From the NCBI GenBank assembly GCA_964291675.2, contig OZ219866.1:1184001-1248000 (forward strand): 64,000 nucleotides of DNA, given 5' to 3'. Numbering within the stretch: the first letter of the stretch is position 1; every line of letters starts with the position of its first letter. The position numbers and the translations under genes are program-made. The notes beneath the pieces were generated by a model, which ran no database searches, was not told the origin of the DNA, and saw only the letters and a list, made by a program, of their open reading frames with translations. The stretch comes from Alphaproteobacteria bacterium (GTDB lineage Bacteria; Pseudomonadota; Alphaproteobacteria; MPNO01). Of this stretch, positions 957 to 55,712 are shown piece by piece.

Positions 957-2210
957 GTGGCGCGGGCCTCCTGGCTCGGCGGTATCGGGACCGCGCTCGG
1001 GCATCGCGACTACCGGGTCTACTCGATCGGCGCCTCTGGGCCGTTTCTCGGCACCTGGATCTACCGCACCGCGCTCGGCTGGCTCGCCTGGGAGCTGACG
1101 CGCTCGCCGGCCTGGCTCGGCATCGTGGTGTTCTGCGAGGTGGTGCCGATCATCGCGCTGGTGCCGCTGACCGGGGCGGCGACCGACCGGCTCGGCGCCT
1201 ACCGGATTTTCAGGACGGCGCAAGCCTCCGGCGCTTGCGTCATGGCGGCGCTCGCGCTCGCCACGGCGCTGGGCGCGATCTCCATCGAGCTGTTGCTGGC
1301 GCTGACCGTGCTGAACGGCGTCAACATGGCCTTCATGCAACCCTCCTATTTCGCCCTGGTCGCCAACCTGGTGCCGCGCGAGGCGCTGTCGTCGGCGGTC
1401 GCCCTGCAATCCTCGATGGTCCAGACCGCGCGCTTCGTCGGCCCGGCGATCGCCGGCGCGCTGCTGCTCTGGCAGGGCGCGGCGGCGGCGTTCGCGGTCA
1501 ACGCGGTCTCCTATGTCGGCATGGTGGCGGCGCTGCTCGCGATCTCGTATCGCGATCCGGCGCGGATGGCGGGTCCCGCCGGCGGGCTGCTCGGCGACGT
1601 GGCCCAGGGGCTCCGCTACATCGCCGGCCACGCGACCATCCGCACGCTTCTGTTGATGACGGTCGCGTTCTCGGTGCTGCTGCGCCCGGTGGTCGAGCTG
1701 CTGCCGGCCTTCGCAGCCGAGGTGTTCGGGCGCGGCGCGGACGGGCTGGCGACCCTGCTGTCCGCGGCGGGAGCGGGCGCCATCGTCGGCTCGCTGGTGC
1801 TCGCCCGGCGCGGCAGGACGCAGGGTCTGACGCGGCTCCTCGGGGCTTCCGGCGCGCTCTGCGGCATCGTCGTCGCCGGGTTCGCCGCGACCGATGCGTT
1901 CTGGCTCGGCATCGCCCTGATGGCCACCTACGGGCTGCTCTCCAACGCCAACTCGATCTGCAGCCAGATCCTGATCCAGAACTGCGTCGACCCGGCGATG
2001 CGGGCCCGCGTGATGAGCCTGGTCGGGCTCACCTTCCGCGCCGTGCCGGCGGCGAGCGCGGCGCTGTTCGGGGCGCTCGCGGCAGTGTTCTCCCTCGGCC
2101 CGCCGATCGCGGTGGCGGCCTTGCTCGGCACCCTCGTCGGGTTGTGGACGCTGAACCTGATCCGCAGCGCGCGCCTCGACGAGCGCGCCGAGGGGCCGCC
2201 CGCGGGTTAG
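957..2210 (+). CDS. MFS transporter
   Basis: About 12 hydrophobic segments, GAATDRLG motif A; GTG start at 957 approximate. Confidence 0.85.
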   Translation: MARASWLGGIGTALGHRDYRVYSIGASGPFLGTWIYRTALGWLAWELTRSPAWLGIVVFCEVVPIIALVPLTGAATDRLGAYRIFRTAQASGACVMAALALATALGAISIELLLALTVLNGVNMAFMQPSYFALVANLVPREALSSAVALQSSMVQTARFVGPAIAGALLLWQGAAAAFAVNAVSYVGMVAALLAISYRDPARMAGPAGGLLGDVAQGLRYIAGHATIRTLLLMTVAFSVLLRPVVELLPAFAAEVFGRGADGLATLLSAAGAGAIVGSLVLARRGRTQGLTRLLGASGALCGIVVAGFAATDAFWLGIALMATYGLLSNANSICSQILIQNCVDPAMRARVMSLVGLTFRAVPAASAALFGALAAVFSLGPPIAVAALLGTLVGLWTLNLIRSARLDERAEGPPAG

Positions 2211-2320
2211 GGCGGAGGCGGTCCCATTCGGCGCGGCGGCGCGGCGGTTGTCGGACTGGCAGCCATAGGTTACAGCGGTGCGCGATCGTGCCCATCGAGA
2301 GCGCCGCGCCGGAGGCAGGT

Positions 2321-2608
2321 ATGACCGAAACATTCACCAGGTGGGATGTCACCGAGCATCTTCGCACCCGGGAAGATGCGCGCCTTTACTTGCAGGCCTG
2401 CGCGGAGGAGGATCCGGGCGACGGCAGCCTGATCCGCGCGGCGCTCAACGACATCGCTCGCGCCGGCAACATGAGCAGGCTGGCCCGCGACGCCGGGATG
2501 AGCCGCGAAGGGCTCTACAAGGCCCTGTCGGAGGACGGCAATCCCAGCTTCGCCACGGTGATGCGGATCGCCAGGGCGCTCGGGATGCGGCTGCGGATTA
2601 CCGTCTAG
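2321..2608 (+). CDS. Putative addiction module antidote protein (HI1420-like XRE HTH), no adjacent toxin
   Basis: GGAGG RBS; ALNDIARAGNMSRLARDAGMSREGLYKALSEDGNPSFATV signature. Confidence 0.85.
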   Translation: MTETFTRWDVTEHLRTREDARLYLQACAEEDPGDGSLIRAALNDIARAGNMSRLARDAGMSREGLYKALSEDGNPSFATVMRIARALGMRLRITV

Positions 2609-3404
2609 CGGGCGGCGTCCGCCCGGGCTCCGAGATCAGCAGGTAGCCGCGGTTCTCGACGGTGTCGAAGGTGCGCATCGCGGCGACCAGGTCGGCCGAG
2701 GCCACCCACACCCAGGGCGCCCGGTTGGGGTTCACGTCCATGATCAGGAAGGAATCGCTCGCCGCGTCATAGGCGCCGAGCGGAGAGATGTGCCCGCCGC
2801 CGGGCTGGCCGAGCGCCTTGCGCGCATAGTTGACCAGCACGTAGTCGTCGCGCGCGGCGAGGTTGCGGGCAAGCTCGCGGGCGACCGCCCCGGCATCGGC
2901 GGCCTTGTCCACCACGCGGACGGTTACCGCGAGCCCGTGGGCGCGCAGCACCCGGGCGAGCTGGCGCAGCTGCAGGCCGAAATCGCGCACGGGCTTGCCG
3001 CCGATCTCGATCGGCTTGCCGAGCACCTCGATCTTCGACTTGGTGCGTTCGGTCAGCACGTTGTTCGGCGTGTACTTGCCGAAGAACGGGTTGAAGCCCT
3101 GGGGCAGAAAGGCGCGCTCGTCCTCGGCGATGGATTGCCGGTCCTCGGGCAGGCCCTGCTTCCGGCCCAGCCTGAGCGCGTTCAGCACGATGGCCGACGA
3201 GACCGGGCCGCAGAAGATCTTGTTGTCCTGGCTCACGAAGTGGTTGCTGAGCGGGAAGAAGTCGGTCTTGTGGGCGGAACGCGCGAGGCGCCGGAGGCTC
3301 TCCCCGGACTGCCATTCGACCAGCTCGGGCGCGGCACCCGAAGGGCTTCCCGCCGCCACGGCGGCGGGCAGCGCGAGGAGCAGCAGCAGCGCGGATCGTT
3401 TCAT
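2598..3404 (-). CDS. Phytochelatin synthase family protein with signal peptide
   Basis: QDNKIFCG (Cys), GGHISPLGAY (His), MDVN (Asp) triad; N-terminus MKRSALLLLLALPAAVAA; ATGA overlap with upstream gene. Confidence 0.85.
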   Translation of the reverse strand: MKRSALLLLLALPAAVAAGSPSGAAPELVEWQSGESLRRLARSAHKTDFFPLSNHFVSQDNKIFCGPVSSAIVLNALRLGRKQGLPEDRQSIAEDERAFLPQGFNPFFGKYTPNNVLTERTKSKIEVLGKPIEIGGKPVRDFGLQLRQLARVLRAHGLAVTVRVVDKAADAGAVARELARNLAARDDYVLVNYARKALGQPGGGHISPLGAYDAASDSFLIMDVNPNRAPWVWVASADLVAAMRTFDTVENRGYLLISEPGRTPPARR

Positions 3405-4441
3405 CGTTGCCTCCCGGCTCCCGCCTCGGCCTCGATGCGCTGCGCGAGCATGCGGCGGAAGGCGAGCCCGGGCCCGTCCACGCTGATGTCGATCGAGAAC
3501 GCCCCCGGGCGGCGGTCGATATTCGCCTGCTGGGCGGCGAGGATCGAGACGTCCTCGCCAAAGACGCGGCGGAAATCGACCCGGAAGCGCGCGTCCATCG
3601 CCGCGTCGTCGAGGGCGAAGCTCCGCGCATGCGCGTAGAAATAATGCGTGGTGGTCGCGGTCTCGGGCGTCATGGCGTTGAGGTTGAAGAACTCGACCCT
3701 CCGTTCCGTCGGGGCGTCGGCGCCGCCGGCGCCCGCCGGCGCGCAGCCGGCATGCACCGTGTTGTAGGCGGGGAGCGTGGACACCGCGACCTGCCAGCGG
3801 TCGACATTGCCGTCGAACCCGCCCATCTCGCCATAGAGCGGCGGCGCCGGCGAGTCGGCCACCAGCCGCGACATGGTGACGAAGTCCTCGCCGCGCCCGG
3901 TCTCGATCGGGAAGTCGGCGACGTTGTCGGTGCCGATCGAGCCCGCATGCACATAGGCGACATGCGAGAGATCGAGCAGGTTGTCGTTGAGCAGCAGGTA
4001 GTTCGCCTCGACATGGAAGGGCTCGCCGCCTTTGACCGGGCGCCAGTCGGGATGGTCCATCCACCACCAGTCGGGGATCAGCGCGGGGTCGGCGGCCTCG
4101 GCATCGCCCATCCAGATCCACACCCAGCCATGGCGCTCGGCGAGCGGGAAGGCACGGACGCCCGCGCCGGGCGGGACGGTCGACTGGCCGGGCACCGCAA
4201 CGCAGCGCCCGTTCGCATCGAAGCGGAGCCCGTGATAGCCGCACTGGAGGGTCTCGCCCACCAGGCGTCCCATCGAGAGCGGCAGCGCGCGGTGGCAGCA
4301 GCGGTCCTCGAGCGCGGCCGCCCGGCCGTCCGGGGTGCGGAACAGGACCACCGGCCGGCCCAGGATCGTGCGGGCGAGCGGGGTCCCGGCGACCTCGTCG
4401 TCCCAGGCGGCGGCGTACCAGCAATTCTTCAGATACGTCAT
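3401..4441 (-). CDS. Rieske non-heme iron oxygenase (VanA-like)
   Basis: CCHR...CGYHG Rieske motif; DNLLDLSHVAYVH Fe site. Confidence 0.9.
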   Translation of the reverse strand: MTYLKNCWYAAAWDDEVAGTPLARTILGRPVVLFRTPDGRAAALEDRCCHRALPLSMGRLVGETLQCGYHGLRFDANGRCVAVPGQSTVPPGAGVRAFPLAERHGWVWIWMGDAEAADPALIPDWWWMDHPDWRPVKGGEPFHVEANYLLLNDNLLDLSHVAYVHAGSIGTDNVADFPIETGRGEDFVTMSRLVADSPAPPLYGEMGGFDGNVDRWQVAVSTLPAYNTVHAGCAPAGAGGADAPTERRVEFFNLNAMTPETATTTHYFYAHARSFALDDAAMDARFRVDFRRVFGEDVSILAAQQANIDRRPGAFSIDISVDGPGLAFRRMLAQRIEAEAGAGRQR

Positions 4442-5391
4442 GCAGCCTCCGCCAGCCTGGGGAACAGGCGCCTCGCGTTGCCGTGTTCCATCATCGCGCG
4501 GCCCGCCGCGTCGAACCCCTCGTAGCCGTCGGTCCCGGCGGTCTCCGAATCCGCGACCTCGTCTGGAATATAGGGATAGTCGGTGCCGAACAGAATGCGG
4601 TCCGGCCCGGCGAGGGCTTGCAGCGCGGCGAGCGCCGCCGCATCGCCCGACAGCGCGGTGTCGTAGTAGAGCCGGCCGAGATAGGCGCGCGCGCCGTCGG
4701 GGTAGTTCTCGCGGAAGCGGGTGAGCGTGTCGAAGATCTCGATCCGGTGGGCGAGCGCCGGCAGCGCGCCGCCGGCATGCGACAGGATGAACCGGATCCC
4801 GGGCATCTCCGCCAGCACCCCGTTGAACAGCAGGCTCGCCGCCGCCCGCGCGGTTTCGCAGGGGTAGTCGACGATCGGCCTCGGCACGATATAGTCGCTC
4901 TCGGCGCTCTCGGCCGGGTAGGTCGGGTGGATGAGCACCACGGCGGCGCGCCGGTCGAGCTCGCGGTAGATCTCGCGGAAATCGGCATGGCCCGCCGGGC
5001 GGTCGTCGTTCCGCGTCAGGTGCATGAACCCGTCGAGGCCCACGGTCTCGGCGTATTCGATCTCGGCCAGGCAGTCGTCGACGTCGGGGAAGGGGAGCGC
5101 GGCGAAGGCGCCGAAACGGCCCGCGTGGCCGGCGATCAGCCCGGCGAGATAGTCGTTGCAGCGCCGCGCGAGGTCCCGGCAGGCCGCCCGGTCGCCGTAG
5201 TAGAGGCCGGGCGCCGAGAACGACAGGACCGCGGTGGCGATCCCCTGCCGGTCCATCAGCGCGAGCGAGGTCTCCGGCGACCAGTCGGGGAACGGCCGGT
5301 AGGCGGTCGAGGGATAGCCGCCCGCGGTCTGCGCCTCGCGGAAGAACCGCGGCAGCACGTGGTGGTGAACGTCGATGCGGTCCTGTCTCAT
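4438..5391 (-). CDS. Amidohydrolase_2 family protein (decarboxylase/hydrolase-like)
   Basis: IDVHHH, IHP, LSHAGG, LFGTDYP motifs. Confidence 0.88.
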   Translation of the reverse strand: MRQDRIDVHHHVLPRFFREAQTAGGYPSTAYRPFPDWSPETSLALMDRQGIATAVLSFSAPGLYYGDRAACRDLARRCNDYLAGLIAGHAGRFGAFAALPFPDVDDCLAEIEYAETVGLDGFMHLTRNDDRPAGHADFREIYRELDRRAAVVLIHPTYPAESAESDYIVPRPIVDYPCETARAAASLLFNGVLAEMPGIRFILSHAGGALPALAHRIEIFDTLTRFRENYPDGARAYLGRLYYDTALSGDAAALAALQALAGPDRILFGTDYPYIPDEVADSETAGTDGYEGFDAAGRAMMEHGNARRLFPRLAEAA

Positions 5392-47929: not shown

Positions 47930-49413
47930 TGCGAAGCCCGTCAGTACACTGATTATCCGATTGGAAAGCCTAAACCGGACCCATCCGCGTCGCAAGCCAT
48001 GTGTGACTGAGACGGAAGAATGGAAAACATGAGGGGGCCATTCAACTGCCGTCTAGGCCTGAACAAATCCATTGACGGTCCCAGGACTTTCAAGGTACAG
48101 ACATCCTCACCGATCCATTTTCACCTAGTGAGGGGGAGCCTATAAAGCAACGCAAGATTGACCGAATTTACTTTTGTCTTCAAGCTAGAATTAGTGAAAG
48201 TCGTCTATCTCGTCTGGTGCAACAGTAAATGCACTAGCTTTTGTTGGTTTGTCAAATTGAAGGGGCCTTCGCTGCCTGCGTATACTTCAAGACTAAGGGT
48301 ACCGTCGTGATTGTGTGTGGCTGGACGTGAACATATCCTTCAGAACGCAACTTCTTGGTAGTGTTGCTGACCTATGTTCCGAATGCAACTTTGCTCTGGC
48401 AAGACCGGACATCTTAGTAGAGTTGCTCGTTAGACTTGCGCGTTACCGAGAAGAAGGCACGAAACTTGCGCCGCAGGTTTATTTGACTGACGATATAGAC
48501 TTTGTAATGAAACTGCTTCCCGGCGGTGAAAAAGTCCCTCTTTCGACTGCGGCATCAGACCCCAACGGAGTTGAAAAATTGCTTAAGTTGTGCGCTCCCT
48601 TAGCTGTCGGTGAATGGAGGATATTCGGCCAACAGATTGCCGACGAACTTACTTTCGGTGTTTTCCGTGGATCAAGCAATCCCATATCAGTTAGTGTGGA
48701 TGATACTTTGTTGTCAGAACAGACTGAAGCAACGGTTATCAAATTACATCAAGTTGCAGAAGAATGTGTGCAACTACGAAGTTCTAAAGGTCACTGTGAT
48801 CACGTGTTCTTTAATCATCGCAAAGTGGAAGATCCAACCCCTCTTCAGTATATTGATGAACTCATTAATAGCATTGTAAAGAAAGTAGAAGACGATGTCA
48901 GAGATGCCGCACACGGCTTTATTGCAAAGACTATACAATCTGCGTTGGTTCACTCTCATGGATGTCTTTTGGCTGTTACTAGTATGCCGAGACCCCCGCA
49001 AGTGCTAAGTCTTGACGCCGTGATATTGGATCGGCCGATCGATTTCCCTTCGTTGATCAGGCAATTGAAGAAAGATGATGATACTAGCACTTGGTTACAG
49101 CATATCGAAAGAGAGGCTCAGTTAGTTGAAGGAATGATCAATTGCGATGGAATTACATTGTTTGATCAGTATGGGAAGTTGCTTGCTTATCGTTGCTTCA
49201 TCCAATTGCCAAGACGAGTGGACGTAGGGGGAGGAGCCCGACGGCGGGCCTTTGAAACTCTAAAGGGGCGACTAGGCAAAGGTCTCTCAGCCGTAAGCGT
49301 TCGGGGTAGCCGCCCTTGTCAGGGGTAGGTTCGGGACCGCAGTCTCTGTTCCGGGATTTGGCGGCCGATAGTGTCCATTATCGGCTAATGGACACTATCG
49401 TTGGGGGGCTGCG

Positions 49414-50105: not shown

Positions 50106-51526
50106 TTCATCGTTTATATACAATAGGTTGACTCCTATCCGGGCTTCCCTTTGGCGGCCTTTTCCTGTAGGCTGCGGTCATGCTCGAAGAGGCGCATTCC
50201 CTGCCTGACGACATCGCCGCACTGAAGGCGATGGTGCTGTCCTCGCGGGCCGAGGTGGCGGCGCGGGACGCCGAGTTGCGCAACCGTGACCTTCTGATCG
50301 AGAAGCTCAAGCACCAGCTTGCGGGTCTGCGCCGCCAGCGCTTCGGCGCCACTTCGGAGGCCCTCGATCAGCTTGAGCTCGGGCTGGAGGACGAGGAGAT
50401 CGCGCGCTCGGCCGAGACGTTTGCCGAGCCAGCCCCGGCGGCAAAGAGACAGCCCAAGCGCCGTCCCTTGCCGGACCACCTGCCGCGCGAGGAGACGCAT
50501 CTCGCGCCTTCAGGCGATCGCTGCGCGGACTGCGGCGGTCGCCTCAAGCGTCTCGGCGAGGATGTGACCGAGGAGCTGGAGTACATCCCCGGCCGCTTCG
50601 TGGTGAAGCGCATCGTGCGCCCGCGCCTGGCCTGCGGCGGCTGTGAGACGTTCCACCAAGCGCCGCTGCCGTCGCGGCCGATCGAGCGCGGCCGTCCGGG
50701 CCCGGGCCTTCTGGCGCATGTGCTGGTCTCGAAGTACTGCGATCACCTGCCGCTCTACCGTCAGTCGCGTATCTTCGCCCGCGATGGCGTCGATCTCGAC
50801 CGCTCGACGCTGGCCGGCTGGGTGGGCAAGGCGACGGCGCTGCTGGAGCCCCTGGCCGATGCCGTCGGGCGCCATGTTCTGGGCGGCCAAGCCCTGTTCG
50901 CCGACGACACCCCGGTCAAGTTGCTGGCGCCGGGGACCGGCAAGACGGCGACGGGTCGGGCCTGGACCTATGTCCGCGACGAGCGTCCGTGGAAGGGCGA
51001 GGCATCGCCGGCGGCGTGGTATCGCTTCTCGGCCGACCGCAAGGCGGCGCATCCGAAGAGCCATCTCGCGGGCTACGCCGGCTGGATGCACTCGGACGGC
51101 TATGCCGGCTTCGGCGCACTGGCGCGCGCGGGGCCGGTCCGCGAGGTCGCCTGCCTGGCCCATGTGCGGCGCAAGTTCTTCGACGTCCACGCCGCTCAGG
51201 GCTCGGCGGTCGCCGCCGAGGCGCTGGAACGGATCGCCGCGCTCTACGCCATCGAGAAGGAGGTCCGCGGGCAGCCCCCAGAGCGCCGCGTCGCGATCCG
51301 CCGCGCCAAGGCCGCGCCGCACCTCGATGAGTTCGAGCGCTGGCTGCAAACGCAACTGCCGAAGCTCTCCGCCAAGACCCCGCTGGCGGCGGCGATCCGC
51401 CATGCGCTGACCCGGCTGAAGCGCCTGCGGCCCTATATCGAGCACGGCTTCCTCGAGATCGACAACAACCCGGCCGAGCGCGCGATGCGCCCGATCGCGA
51501 CGATGGAGTCATTCTGCACCCCTTCT

Positions 51527-53593
51527 TCAAGTGTCTGAAAACATTGACATCTGATCCCGACATGAAGCGCGACGCGGGTCTTTCCGCAGTGCCAGGGCGT
51601 TGGCGACCCGCTCGGAATGGAGGTCTTTGGCCCTGATTTGCCAGGGCGCTCCGGGAACGAGTTGCGTGGCAGGTAGCGTTCCATCCTCGATCAGGCGCCT
51701 GAGGGTATGGCTGGTCGTGCCCAACTCTTTCGCCGCCTCGGTCATGGTGCGCCAGTCGCCCTGCTTGTCCGCTGAGAGGTAGCCGTCGATCCCGTTCACA
51801 CGCCGGATCGATCCGACCCGGTGAGCGGTCCAACTCTTGTGCTGCCCGGTCCGCATACCCATCCGGTTGAGCGACGCGGCGATATGTTCGTCCGACCATC
51901 GCCCGGCCATGCTGCGTATCACTGCCAGAGCTTCCTCGGGCGTTCGGCAGCCATGTTCGCCGCTCTTGGGCTTGCGGACCCTGAGACGGGAATGACGGCC
52001 ACCCATCCAGTGGATCGTCAGCAGGACGTCACGCGCCTCTTCGTCGACATCGACGATTATGCCCATGATCAGGGTGCGCACGAGACGCTGGCGGGCGCGC
52101 ATGCTCACCCCGGGCGCGTTCCAGGCGGCCTTCAGGTCGTCGGCAAGTCCGGCCAGGTCGGGGACAGTGGGCCGCGGCGACGGCATCGCGCCCAGCCTTG
52201 CTTCGCACGCCTGGACGCGTCGAAGCGCTGCCTCCCAACTCTTCTCCAGCTCGGCGGCGATCAGCCGGTTGTCCGGATCGCAGGCGGCGTAGCGCCGCTC
52301 GGCGAGCGCCGCCTCGTAGCGGGCTTGCTGCAGATCCAGCTCGGCCACCCGTTGCTGTTCGGAAAGACCCTCCGCGTTCATCCGCTCGGCTTCCAACGAG
52401 GCTTCCACCGCCATGGGCTCCACGACGCGGAGGATCTCATCGGCAACGGCCGCATCCACACGCGCACCCCCGAACCCCAGACAGGGCTCTAGCTCGAGCT
52501 GGAGGTGTCGCCGATTGCAGCGGTAGACAGGATTGCCGGGCGTGCGACCGGAATAGGCAACGCTCATCGTGCGTCCGCAGCGTGCGCAACTGAGGAGGCC
52601 GCCAAGAAGCGCCCGCCCGCCGCGCCCCGACTTCGTGCCCCCCGCCTTGCCGAAGGCATTGGCGGCGAGCTGCGCCTGGTTGCGCTCGAACTCCGGCCAG
52701 TCGATGTAGCCCTCGTGATGGTCCTTCAGCACGACCTCCCATTCCGCCATCGGCTTGCGGTGTCCATAGCTCTTGCGCACGCGCCCGTCGACGATCTCGG
52801 TCCGCCGCTCGCTTTTGCCGTAAGCGTAGACCCCGGCGTAGAAAGGGTTCTTCAACACCGAAATTACGTTGCGATAGCGGATCGGCGTCCAGTCGAAGGA
52901 GACCATTGTCCTGCCATCCGACGGGCGTGGGAAGCAAAGCTTCTGCCCGCTCAGCGCCAGCAACACCTGCCGCGCGCTGCCAAGCTCGCGAAACCGGGCG
53001 AATACCTGACGGATCGCTTCCTGAACCCGAATGTCGGGGTCCAGCCCCAGCCCGGCCTCGGGATGCCAGACGTAGCCGATCGGGACGCTGATGCGAAGCT
53101 CGCCGCGGGCGGCCTTGGAGCGGGCGGCCTCGAACATCCGAGCGCGCAGAACGCCGAGTTCGAACTCGCTGATCTGGCCCTTCATGCCGAGCAGCAGACG
53201 ATCGTTGGGGTGGCGAGGATCGTAGATGCCATCCTGGTCGATGACGCGTGCCTCGACGAGACCGCAGAGCTCGAGAAGATGGTGCCAGTCCCGGCCGTTG
53301 CGAGAGACCCGCGAAGCCTCGAAACAAAGCACGGCTCCAACGTCCCCGGCGCACAGCCAGGCGACGAGGCGCTCGAAACCGGGCCGCGCAACGGCACCGT
53401 CCGCCGACAGGCCCTGATCGTCGTCGATGACTTCGACCCGGGCAAAGCCGTGCCCGCGCGCCACATCGACGAGATCGTATTGGCGGCGCTGGCTCTCCAG
53501 ATTGTTCCGCATCTGCTGGGGCGTGGACTGACGGACATAGACCACGGCCTTGCGCGTCAACACCGATCGCGGCAACGCTTCAGCGACGCCCAT
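51527..53593 (-). CDS. Large serine recombinase (resolvase, recombinase, Zn-ribbon, C-terminal HTH)
   Basis: YVRQST catalytic Ser, SRVSRN, LKNPFYAG, CARCG..YRC; GGAGG RBS. Confidence 0.93.
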   Translation of the reverse strand: MGVAEALPRSVLTRKAVVYVRQSTPQQMRNNLESQRRQYDLVDVARGHGFARVEVIDDDQGLSADGAVARPGFERLVAWLCAGDVGAVLCFEASRVSRNGRDWHHLLELCGLVEARVIDQDGIYDPRHPNDRLLLGMKGQISEFELGVLRARMFEAARSKAARGELRISVPIGYVWHPEAGLGLDPDIRVQEAIRQVFARFRELGSARQVLLALSGQKLCFPRPSDGRTMVSFDWTPIRYRNVISVLKNPFYAGVYAYGKSERRTEIVDGRVRKSYGHRKPMAEWEVVLKDHHEGYIDWPEFERNQAQLAANAFGKAGGTKSGRGGRALLGGLLSCARCGRTMSVAYSGRTPGNPVYRCNRRHLQLELEPCLGFGGARVDAAVADEILRVVEPMAVEASLEAERMNAEGLSEQQRVAELDLQQARYEAALAERRYAACDPDNRLIAAELEKSWEAALRRVQACEARLGAMPSPRPTVPDLAGLADDLKAAWNAPGVSMRARQRLVRTLIMGIIVDVDEEARDVLLTIHWMGGRHSRLRVRKPKSGEHGCRTPEEALAVIRSMAGRWSDEHIAASLNRMGMRTGQHKSWTAHRVGSIRRVNGIDGYLSADKQGDWRTMTEAAKELGTTSHTLRRLIEDGTLPATQLVPGAPWQIRAKDLHSERVANALALRKDPRRASCRDQMSMFSDT

Positions 53594-53765
53594 CGTCATC
53601 CTCCTTCACCGGGGCGGTCGCCGCTTCCAGAAGCAACCCGGCCACTGCGCTCACCACCGCGTCTCGTTCCTCCGAGCTCAGACCGCGCAGCGTCGGTGCG
53701 TCGAGCGGCATGCCGAGCTGTCGGGGTTCTCTCGGCGGTCGCGCTGTTACAGGCAAAGACTTCAT
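53580..53765 (-). CDS. Small hypothetical protein upstream of the recombinase (61 aa)
   Basis: GAGGAG RBS; MKSLPV...VAGLLLEAA; overlaps recombinase start. Confidence 0.5.
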   Translation of the reverse strand: MKSLPVTARPPREPRQLGMPLDAPTLRGLSSEERDAVVSAVAGLLLEAATAPVKEDDDGRR

Positions 53766-54082
53766 CGCGCTCCTCTCCGCTAACGGTTCCGTCATCGGGG
53801 GAGCTATGTCGAAAACCTTGGCCGACGAGAAGCTCGTGAAGTGCGGCGAGGGCGGCCGGGGAGGCACGCGGCGCGCCGATCTCCATGCCGGCGCATGACG
53901 CAGGATCAAGCATCCAGGCGGGTATCTTGATGATCAGCCCCGGCTCTACCTCGACGGAGGCCATGAGGCCGTCTGCACGCTGTTCGATAACTTCAGGGCG
54001 TACTCGCCGACCGAACAGTGCGTGCCAGCGGTAGTGGATGACGCAATCCTGCCCGATATGGGCAGAATGAATGCGCGATCGC
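53596..54082 (-). CDS. Body of a junction-split gene (start codon supplied from 51512 after circularisation)
   Basis: Frame open from the right junction: RSRIHSAHIGQDCVIHYRWHALFGRRV...IPAWMLDP. Confidence 0.55.
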
Positions 54083-54389
54083 CTTGGGCCGGAAGAACTA
54101 TCTCTTCATGGGCTCAGCCAGCGGCGGCCGGGCCGCCGCCATCGCCTACACCTTGATCGAGACCGCAAGGCTCAACCACGTCGACCCGCAGGCTTGGCTT
54201 GCCCAGGTTCTCGAGCGCATCCCCGACTACAAGATCAACCGCGTCGAAGAACTGCTGCCCTGGAACTGAACGCCGACCGCAGATCAGGGCCAAATCGCCT
54301 GAACGCCCAGGGCGGCTCCGCCCAACGCTTACTCTCAGCCGCCTATATTCGATCCGAAGATGGGTGGACAGACTTCGGGAGCACTGCCC

Positions 54390-55712
54390 GTGGCTAATAC
54401 AATGAAACTATGGCAGCCGGACAAGCAACAATTAGTGCCCAAGGATGCACGAACGGCAAAGTCCATTGCTAAGTGCGCTAGGCAACTTTCCCAGCGAGAC
54501 AAGGGACAGATCGTATCAGCATTCAAGTCCGGCCACTACGATATGGGGATCAATTTCCTCTGGCTTAGAACTATCGCAGCGCTGAAACGGGAATTGGCGA
54601 CCGTAGGGATAGGACTGTTAGGAGAAATGCTTGGGCGAGTTGGGGTAAATGAAGACGACGATATCGAGGATCTTCTAACGCCACGTGAAACGATTCGCTT
54701 GGCTGGGGAATTAGGCGCCATCTCTCAGACCGAAGCTATGCGATTGCGACAGACGCATGAATTGGTTGTCCATTTTAACCAACTCTCTTTTGAGGAGGAT
54801 CCACTCGAAGAAATCAACGAATCGGAAGCAATCACATCCCTTAGGGCATGTGTTTCAGCGGTGCTCGCGAAGCCAAAAATAGAGGTCGCTAAGACTTTTG
54901 TTGAATTCAGGGAATCTCTAGAGACCGAGGCATTTGGGTCGGATGAAGAAAAGATCAATTTGCTAGTGGGTTCTCCATACTTCTTTTGGAAGTTAACCAT
55001 CGACATCCTGATGAACTCCGCAAAGGATTCGTCCGGCGTTAAGTTGGAACATTGCTTGGCTAATTTAAACGTTATATTGCCTAAGTTGTGGCCAAATTTG
55101 AAAGATGCCGAGAAGTGGCGCGTCGGACGCACGTATGCTGAAGTGCATTCAGAAGGAAAGTCAACTTCATCGAGCGGCCTAAAGCAGGCTCTCATGAAGG
55201 TGCAGGGATTTGACTTTGTGCCTGAGAACCTTCGCAGTGATACCTTTGTCAAAGCCGCTGAGGCAGTGGTGCGTGCCCATGACGGAATGAATAATTTCTA
55301 TAATGAAGGCGCACCAGTTAGAAATCTTGCCCAACTCGGAACTTCAATTCCGCCGCCCGCTTTGCCAGCATGTATGACGGCGTTGTTGGCAGTATACGTC
55401 GGAAATCAATATGGTTATTCTTTCGAAGCAGCTCCCGTGGCAGAGAGGATGCTGTCTGGGATTAGTGATGATAGGTGGCGCTATTATTTGAACCAAGTGT
55501 TGCCCAACGATACTAGGATACTCAATAAACTAGCATTGCATTCCAAGCCGCGCGGGCGATGGATGGATTTAGTTGATCGGAATGCCCTTGGCGAATGCCG
55601 AGTTAATGACCGTCGGGTGGGTAAGATGCTCGATGCTGCAGGGCAAAAGAACGAGAACGAGATTGGTCAGACCGCGAAAAAACTCTTGGGACGATATTAC
55701 AAAAAAGCGTGA
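54390..55712 (+). CDS. Hypothetical ~440-aa protein, possible degenerate HEPN-like N-terminal domain
   Basis: Long low-GC ORF; GTG with GGAG RBS overlaps the DAC-like gene stop; helical N-terminus GHYDMGINFLW..LRQTHELVVH. Confidence 0.75.
   Translation: MANTMKLWQPDKQQLVPKDARTAKSIAKCARQLSQRDKGQIVSAFKSGHYDMGINFLWLRTIAALKRELATVGIGLLGEMLGRVGVNEDDDIEDLLTPRETIRLAGELGAISQTEAMRLRQTHELVVHFNQLSFEEDPLEEINESEAITSLRACVSAVLAKPKIEVAKTFVEFRESLETEAFGSDEEKINLLVGSPYFFWKLTIDILMNSAKDSSGVKLEHCLANLNVILPKLWPNLKDAEKWRVGRTYAEVHSEGKSTSSSGLKQALMKVQGFDFVPENLRSDTFVKAAEAVVRAHDGMNNFYNEGAPVRNLAQLGTSIPPPALPACMTALLAVYVGNQYGYSFEAAPVAERMLSGISDDRWRYYLNQVLPNDTRILNKLALHSKPRGRWMDLVDRNALGECRVNDRRVGKMLDAAGQKNENEIGQTAKKLLGRYYKKA

Follow-up and report, generated by a model that had tools for sequence, protein, structure and literature searches.

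A gene divided between the two ends of a large serine recombinase element nested in an IS66 transposase gene

How is a protein made from a gene whose start codon lies at one end of a mobile element and whose coding body lies at the other? The question is raised by a stretch of 64,000 nucleotides (nt), hereafter the window, from an alphaproteobacterium (GTDB lineage MPNO01; assembly GCA_964291675.2, contig OZ219866.1, positions 1,184,001 to 1,248,000). A 2584-bp mobile element encoding a large serine recombinase (LSR) occupies window positions 51499–54082, nested inside an IS66 tnpC gene that it cuts in two (50180–54269). One accessory gene of this element, here termed ORF-X, is itself divided, with its start codon and its coding body at opposite element ends. 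An earlier note on this DNA, made from the letters alone, had drawn attention to the arrangement, which is present in the sequence and recurs in 40 of the 41 elements compared below. The observation is confirmed; its interpretation is supported by comparative evidence; and the direction in which ORF-X acts is something that we infer.

On the minus strand, the element reads in the order ORF-X body, ORF-Y, recombinase, and finally a ribosome-binding site with an ATG. These start signals lie in the P arm of the attachment site (51499–51526, minus strand). Directly past the recombinase stop TGA (51529–51527) come the ribosome-binding site AGAAGGGG (51526–51519), a 6-nt spacer, an ATG (51512–51510), and four further codons leading to the crossover dinucleotide GC at 51497–51498. 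In the integrated state this ATG reads MTPSS and then enters antisense tnpC (open reading frame 50916–51899), just as the earlier note had described. The 161-codon ORF-X body lies at the other end (53596–54081, minus strand). Its frame runs for 39 codons without ATG, GTG, or TTG, from 54081 to an ATG at 53964, and ends at 53596 in a stop that overlaps the recombinase ATG; position 54082, formerly given as the first of the frame, is the third base of the preceding codon. The P′ arm (54049–54082) comprises the crossover GC (54082–54081), 11 nt, and then CATTCTGCCCATATCGGGCAG (54069–54049), which encodes HSAHIGQ.

The two element ends have 7 nt in common rather than the GC alone: the core CGATCGC is found at 51492–51498 on the left and again at 54076–54082 on the right. 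Joining the ends anywhere within this core yields a single product, with 5 codons fused in frame to 161 (MTPSS onto RSRIHSAHIG..), and the predicted 166 amino acids and 501 nt, stop included, stand. In the joined ORF-X, codons 5 and 6 lie on either side of the crossover, in the window and in all 41 of 41 in-silico joins, which places the attachment site within the gene, a partition of the SSV type. In the joined state the recombinase stop leads to the ORF-X start; ORF-Y lies within the ORF-X tail in another frame; and the ORF-X stop overlaps the recombinase start. The gene overlaps fit the head-to-tail loop that had been proposed, and the loop is closed and densely packed.

The explanation that we consider probable is that this LSR element carries its attachment site, attP, inside the 5′ end of ORF-X, and that ORF-X encodes a cofactor gated by the state of the element. 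The recombinase would move the element by cutting and rejoining at the 2-nt GC crossover in an IS66 codon block. On integration, the start signals and the four codons after the ATG would stay at one end and the 161-codon body at the other; excision would rejoin the ends and make the 166-residue ORF-X readable. According to the model, ORF-X would act as a recombinase cofactor made from the excised form alone, its gene destroyed by integration. For the window copy, we infer that ORF-X is translatable at full length only with the ends joined, whether in an excised circle or in a head-to-tail tandem.

Comparative analysis began from a contig scan of one genome per species, which gave 414 loci encoding an ORF-X relative, 80 of which were kept; isolates of Azospirillum, Paracoccus, and Caballeronia are among the carriers of relatives. 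Both element ends are at hand in 39 of the 80, which together with the window and a further copy from its own genome (L003) make up the 41 elements; 40 loci are without one end, and L056 was deliberately excluded. P arms were located with a 31-nt consensus and a distance limit, a 14-nt consensus having been rejected for the false sites that it placed inside the recombinase gene, in the window as elsewhere. Codon-entropy and arm comparisons refer to 36 non-redundant elements.

Judged by these comparisons ORF-X is a real gene, in which constraint of the protein type is apparent from about 10 codons past the junction, well upstream of 53964. Homologs number 124 in the clustered protein set, and 922 cluster representatives are found at E <= 0.001; alignments were made of 35 and of 126 homologs. 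Conservation in the 35-sequence alignment starts at ..HSAHIGQ..HYRWHxLxGRxVR, and the internal methionine of the window ORF-X (53964) is unconserved there. Codons 8–60 have entropies of 0.71, 0.59, and 1.34 bits at positions 1, 2, and 3, respectively. In HYRWHxLxGRxVR, entropy is near 0 at positions 1 and 2 and reaches 1–1.9 bits at position 3. The pattern sets in from about codon 7 onward. The HSAHIG codons are invariant even at their third positions (entropy ~0), which indicates constraint by the attachment site at the DNA level. The AlphaFold2 (AF2) model of ORF-X is confident for residues 11–99 and contains an SH3-like barrel at residues 2–60, followed by helices, so that a start at 53964 would be predicted to halve the fold. 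Conservation beginning only at that codon, the pattern that the earlier note had named as telling against its own proposal, was thus not seen: it begins at HYRWH..GRRVR, and the barrel includes these residues.

Are the start signals conserved as well? The ATG lies 11 nt ahead of the crossover dinucleotide in 40 of the 41 elements, L038 having ATA, and the joined ORF-X frame is open in 41 of 41. The P-arm ribosome-binding site pairs strongly with the anti-Shine-Dalgarno sequence (mean −9.85 kcal/mol, where 1433 other ATG triplets of these elements average −2.96). That the same ATG position, frame, and ribosome-binding site are kept in 40 of 41 elements makes the split more than chance, and rejoining the ends of homologous elements in silico, proposed in the earlier note as a check, preserves the frame throughout. 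At the other junction, the ORF-X stop overlaps the recombinase start, as ATGA in 25 of 36 elements and as GTGA in 7. Six elements have an overlap at the recombinase stop too, which is there the TGA of ATGA or part of TAATG. Stop/start overlap such as ATGA is the usual layout of coupled genes.

The element is a mobile unit of its own. Contigs from three of four public runs (X1, X2, and X3) contain an exact empty IS66 site that joins 51491 to 54076, skipping 2584 nt with 7 ambiguous letters. GC at both ends, an exact empty site, and the absence of any target duplication beyond those 2 nt are characteristics that it shares with LSR integrative elements. Word depth in run X1 is ~56 for the element and ~10 for the unique flank, and the window's own genome contains several copies: 100% identical, 98% identical, and decayed. 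The 98% copy (L003) sits in a different IS66. The 100% copy (L002; contig 1, 902445–905245) is identical to the window with flanks included, on another contig; as the genome is scored 6.67% contaminated, this copy may reflect duplication in the assembly and not another insertion. The decayed remnant (L004; contig 2, ~1198–4800) is 81% identical over ORF-X and the tnpC 3′ flank, and sits within the same codon block of a third IS66; in place of its recombinase side stands other sequence, with a peptide that we take to be IS21 IstB-like.

A joined form is found in public DNA. Joined forms were sought with an intact-attP pattern consisting of the P-arm motif, 23 nt, and the P′-arm motif. One metagenome contig (L090), from a distant relative, carries the recombinase 3′ end, GAAGGTGGAG, ATG, and MKPSSQAPFHSAHVG..HYRWH contiguously. 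In addition, 4 of 180 database homologs (P0039, P0045, P0118, and P0178), known as protein records, start with P-arm-type peptides in the joined register, for example MTRSS-QSPGHS. The joined state is therefore real and rare in assemblies, and presumably exists for the window copy as well. The earlier note had named a lasting failure to detect a circle as telling against its proposal; the L090 contig provides a joined form, in a distant relative, and none was found for the window copy in the contigs of the four runs.

How might the ORF-X protein act? The recombinase (51527–53599, minus strand; 690 amino acids) has the catalytic domain of an LSR (Resolvase, PF00239, E 2e-20, residues 18–167), with YVRQS (R23, Q24, S25) invariant across 29 aligned relatives that are 65–78% identical to it. 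There follow PF07508 (Recombinase, E 1e-17), PF13408 (Zn_ribbon_recom, E 2.5e-07), and a C-terminal excisionase-like helix-turn-helix (HTH) domain, HTH_17; NCBIfam matches are below equivalog cut-offs. The structural model has the further domains of an LSR: strands at residues 336–377, then a coiled-coil hairpin of helices 379–439 and 445–471. A complex was predicted from three chains (recombinase, ORF-Y, and ORF-X residues 1–105), with ORF-X as the scored partner. The ORF-X/recombinase ipSAE is 0.64, against 0.00 for the best of three controls, a level that 58 of 80 solved complexes attain, as do 2 of 110 mismatched pairs, although these counts hold only roughly for a prediction whose three chains and custom alignments differ from the calibration. 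The runs agree in at least 87% of contacts, with partner pLDDT of at least 69. Predicted contacts lie on recombinase residues 337–344, 388–405, and 476–538, around the base of the coiled-coil hairpin (379–471). Thus, ORF-X probably binds the recombinase at the junction of zinc domain and coiled-coil, which the model supports rather than demonstrates. Passages in two papers place the binding of serine integrase directionality factors at the same junction, between DNA-binding domain 2 (DBD2, the zinc domain) and the coiled-coil (PMC11795197, PMC11722253). Of the roles that the earlier note had suggested, that of a directionality or re-integration factor gains from this predicted contact, and nothing supports a role in replication.

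ORF-Y (53580–53765, minus strand; 61 amino acids) comes with a ribosome-binding site of its own, GGAGAGGAG, covers the ORF-X tail in the +1 frame, and ends 20 nt inside the recombinase gene. There are 49 tblastn matches to it in the loci, and the block RQLSMxLDxxxLRGMxPxERxxAxxxLAxLLLEAA is present in 33 of 36 elements, always in the +1 frame. Its codon-position entropies (0.98, 0.73, and 1.35) indicate conservation as a protein, one with an acidic end that overlaps the disordered tail of ORF-X; neither a Pfam nor an NCBIfam family was found for it. ORF-Y is a candidate cofactor for the excision side because it can be made in the integrated state. ORF-X, conversely, would favour re-integration, either by acting on the recombinase or by raising recombinase translation through the overlapping stop and start. 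This role is preferred because a circle that does not replicate would have no benefit from a block on its integration; a canonical excision factor is ranked lower, on grounds of logic only, because most integrated copies cannot make ORF-X. A more specific version, tentative and well short of an even chance in our estimate, makes ORF-X a directionality factor with its polarity reversed. Excision would be the work of the recombinase, with or without ORF-Y; the circle would be the sole template for ORF-X; ORF-X would grip the coiled-coil at its base and switch the enzyme to integration; and integration would split the gene and so reset the switch.

Several facts weigh against the state-gated cofactor, in addition to the loose calibration of the complex prediction. 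To our knowledge, every LSR directionality factor described so far promotes excision, which runs counter to the direction preferred here. The intact-attP pattern is absent from viral contigs, from all 401 genomes of the class, and from the window's own genome, and occurs in one metagenome contig only; no end-to-end circle joint of the window copy appears in the contigs of the four runs, contigs being prone to drop rare forms. (All of these are absences in assemblies, and no proof.) The joined ORF-X of L090 is cut further on by an IS3 insertion, and that copy may belong to a tandem or to a replicon and not to a free circle. A scan of the integrated sequence at 51300–54400, which leaves the joined junction outside, found neither promoter nor terminator, and the source of a transcript is left without a candidate because there is no promoter-like site in the element. 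The open frame across the junction was rejected as a test for its weakness, the +2 frame being open in 40 of 41 elements as well. Finally, the P-arm ATG is the reverse complement of an invariant CAT (the histidine codon of HSAH) at positions 12–14 from the crossover, present in 100% of both arms. Because the ATG belongs to a mirrored recombinase-binding motif, its conservation and fixed in-frame spacing are to be expected even if it is unused as a start.

This last fact underlies the rival explanation that survives best, which we nonetheless regard as improbable: the ATG and part of the G-run would be no more than the P-arm copy of that motif, a by-product of attachment-site symmetry, with ORF-X started otherwise in the integrated state, for example at a near-cognate codon near HYRWH. 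The attP arms are indeed imperfect inverted repeats (TCATTsTGCCC at positions 11–21 from the crossover), agreeing in 83–100% of the 36 elements at those positions except 11, 16, and 20, and the DNA-level constraint on HSAHIG is of a piece with this. Moreover, some in-frame ATG, GTG, or TTG lies inside the element before HYRWH in 11 of 41 elements, and gene callers have used such starts (MEIHYRWH in P0071). However, these starts are not conserved in position, and the other 30 elements, of which the window copy is one, are without any canonical start from the junction to HYRWH. The purine tract is a second difficulty, being strongly conserved and yet unmirrored: in the P arm, the purines 22, 24, and 26 nt from the crossover reach 1.82 bits, with a mirrored counterpart in 0–3% of elements, and the mirror stretch of the other arm pairs with the anti-Shine-Dalgarno sequence at a mean of only −2.51 kcal/mol, as against the −9.85 of the P arm. 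By these measures arm symmetry does not appear to account for the purine tract before the ATG.

The arms have other features. The P′ arm (window 54049–54069 and relatives) contains a small inverted repeat of its own, CTGCCC-ATATC-GGGCAG, and the P arm is conserved over ~45 nt (..GTTTCCAGACACTTGA..), longer than the usual half-site. Both may be extra binding sites for the added HTH_17 domain of the recombinase.

A start might also be supplied by the flank, so that ORF-X would be expressed when integrated. The sequence TCATGG, encoding Ser-Trp in IS66, gives on the antisense strand an in-frame ATG six codons before the junction. This would explain the 35 of 180 database homologs whose first residue, in MIFC.. 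or MTFC.. (MIFCPG, for example; the antisense of ..LGR[KR]SW..), lies 21 residues ahead of HYRWH, one residue off the joined register. The flank before the junction was surveyed in the 54 integrated copies for which it extends over 150 nt or more: 22 lack any start, 11 have GTG or TTG only, and 21 have ATG, 11 of these ATGs being of the TCATGG type. The element's bias toward the antisense orientation, 21 to 1, is also in keeping with such use. Nevertheless, 33 of the 54 copies are without a flank ATG, among them the window, where a TGA lies 9 codons ahead of the junction; of the 21 flank ATGs, a single one pairs with the anti-Shine-Dalgarno sequence at −6 kcal/mol or better; and the ATG hangs on the target's choice of synonymous codon, not on the element. 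A flank-supplied start is accordingly given somewhat less credence than the by-product of symmetry. The claim that the protein is made only from an excised circle was still too strong as first worded: it has to allow for the 21 flank ATGs, one with a usable ribosome-binding site, and for tandems, which also join the ends. Least probable is a decaying gene, functional only in an ancestral replicon-borne form and a remnant in dead-end integrated copies, for which the stable carrier suggested by the IS3-interrupted L090 and remnants such as L004 might speak, but which is at odds with purifying selection on ORF-X across the 36 integrated elements, with a constant element length (2581–2623 bp), and with the several copies in the window's genome and their high word depth.

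The state-gated cofactor thus retained, what kind of protein would it be? No Pfam or NCBIfam family was found for ORF-X, nor a PDB match for its model at E <= 0.001 (Foldseek); the best VIA-align Z, 5.8, is to KOW, Tudor, and SH3-like barrels, a generic resemblance. The language-model neighbours are nearly all one family, DUF5372 (PF17342; 29 of 30, score 0.93), and hhalign aligns the two over 71 co-linear columns (E 0.0026). The likeness includes V.HPFHPLxGR against IHYRWHxLxGR, followed by a helical LxxLxxLL part. At the profile level ORF-X stays below the gathering cut-off of 25 bits: the window protein has no match at E <= 0.1, and 1 of 126 homologs matches at E 0.0026. ORF-X therefore looks like a distant relative, or look-alike, of DUF5372. 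Weak matches to the Pfam family Raffinose_syn occur in 55 of the 126 homologs (best E 1.4e-06, profile positions ~311–383); this kinship was judged spurious, the motif probably matching by chance.

A second, unrelated-looking serine-recombinase unit is present in the same genome (L093; contig 2, ~3650984–3654214), with a copy in L091. It consists of a true DUF5372 gene (108 amino acids; PF17342, E 1.2e-18), then an HTH_32/HTH_28 gene, then an LSR gene. This DUF5372 gene, in contrast to ORF-X, has its own ATG. The unit suggests that DUF5372-type proteins are general partners of LSRs.

Genes divided by attachment sites are known from other elements. Passages in PMC8371274 describe SSV-type integrases, in which integration at the att site splits the gene into int(N) and int(C), and liken the requirement for an undivided copy to control through such a factor as sets the direction of recombination. 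These 'suicidal' integrases of archaeal viruses and plasmids, as those passages present them, share with the present element an att site inside an element gene that is whole only in the circle. There, however, a tyrosine recombinase is itself split; here the serine recombinase is intact and an accessory factor is split, with the cut between the start codon and ribosome-binding site on one side and the body on the other. In mycobacteriophage BPs and its relatives, attP lies within a regulatory (repressor) gene, and the integrated and free forms encode different products (PMC4557955). The state of recombination sets gene function in both cases. There the 3′ end is removed from the BPs gene and the shorter prophage form is active, whereas integration removes the 5′ end of ORF-X, start included, and leaves a form without a proper start.

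Circle-specific activation also has precedents. Promoters formed at circle junctions are known from elements of the IS911/IS30 type. In Tn4451 and Tn4453, LSR elements moved by TnpX and the subject of a paper by Lyras and Rood (2000), the circle reportedly assembles a promoter for the recombinase gene. As in the present element, an expression signal is created in the circle and undone by integration; the signal there is a promoter for the recombinase gene, whereas with ORF-X a ribosome-binding site and a start codon are brought to the body of a different gene.

Recombination directionality factors (RDFs) such as phiC31 gp3, SPbeta SprB, and the RDFs of TG1 and Bxb1 are small element-encoded proteins with no common fold; ORF-X resembles them in this and, by prediction, in its contact at the zinc-domain/coiled-coil junction. 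It differs in lacking a start when integrated, and its own cofactor role is a model-based prediction. So far as we are aware, the RDFs described to date are produced by the integrated prophage and promote excision, and the known cofactors that determine the direction of large serine integrases are few.

In the literature searched, supplements aside, no description was found of an LSR element in IS66, of DUF5372, or of an accessory or directionality gene split by attP. Element genes split by att sites (SSV-type, BPs) and circle-specific activation (Tn4451) are known already; what is new is the combination of a serine-recombinase mini-element, a cut between start signals and body, a split RDF-like cofactor rather than a split recombinase or repressor, and strict targeting of IS66 transposase genes. 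If the interpretation is correct, this would be a compact natural case in which the physical state of a mobile element governs expression, with the switch working at translation initiation and not at a promoter or through the recombinase gene. It would also bring to light a widespread LSR accessory protein for which no description was found (414 loci, 922 cluster representatives). Large serine integrases are genome-engineering tools, and a small LSR cofactor with a different logic would be useful there. Should the polarity be reversed as well, the element would amount to a self-resetting toggle, written by recombination, in a 2.6-kb parasite of IS66.

That parasitism would itself be a clear case of one mobile element living on another. 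The window tnpC is an IS66 transposase gene by its Pfam domains. Its 5′ part (50180–51499, plus strand), interrupted after ..RPIA, contains DDE_Tnp_IS66 (PF03050, E 6.7e-89) together with zf-IS66 and LZ_Tnp_IS66 (PF13005 and PF13007), and its 3′ part (54084–54269, plus strand; LGRKNYLF..LPWN) contains DDE_Tnp_IS66_C (PF13817, E 5.2e-19). Elsewhere, an IS66 tnpC flank is present on at least one side in 37 of 41 elements, and the insertion point is the same conserved codon block, ..RPIA|LGRK... The crossover dinucleotide is identical at both ends in 33 of 41: GC in 27, AC in 3, and AG, TT, and CA in one each. Among elements with tnpC on both sides, 21 are antisense to it and 1 is sense (L045). 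That both orientations occur fits the fact that GC is its own complement; the bias between them would be in keeping with the disappearance of copies exposed to read-through from the IS66 promoter, although it may have another origin.

Two open reading frames of 337 and 450 amino acids (48315–49328 and 54360–55712, plus strand) flank the IS66 and appear by eye to be AT-richer than the rest of the window, as if the IS66 copy had been placed in a foreign island. Among the relatives, three elements (L022, L070, and L073) are flanked by two tnpC 3′ parts in opposite orientation, and two copies in one genome (L075 and L077) have their end dinucleotides swapped (AC/GC and GC/AC). From their ends and flanks, these look like rearrangements between copies.

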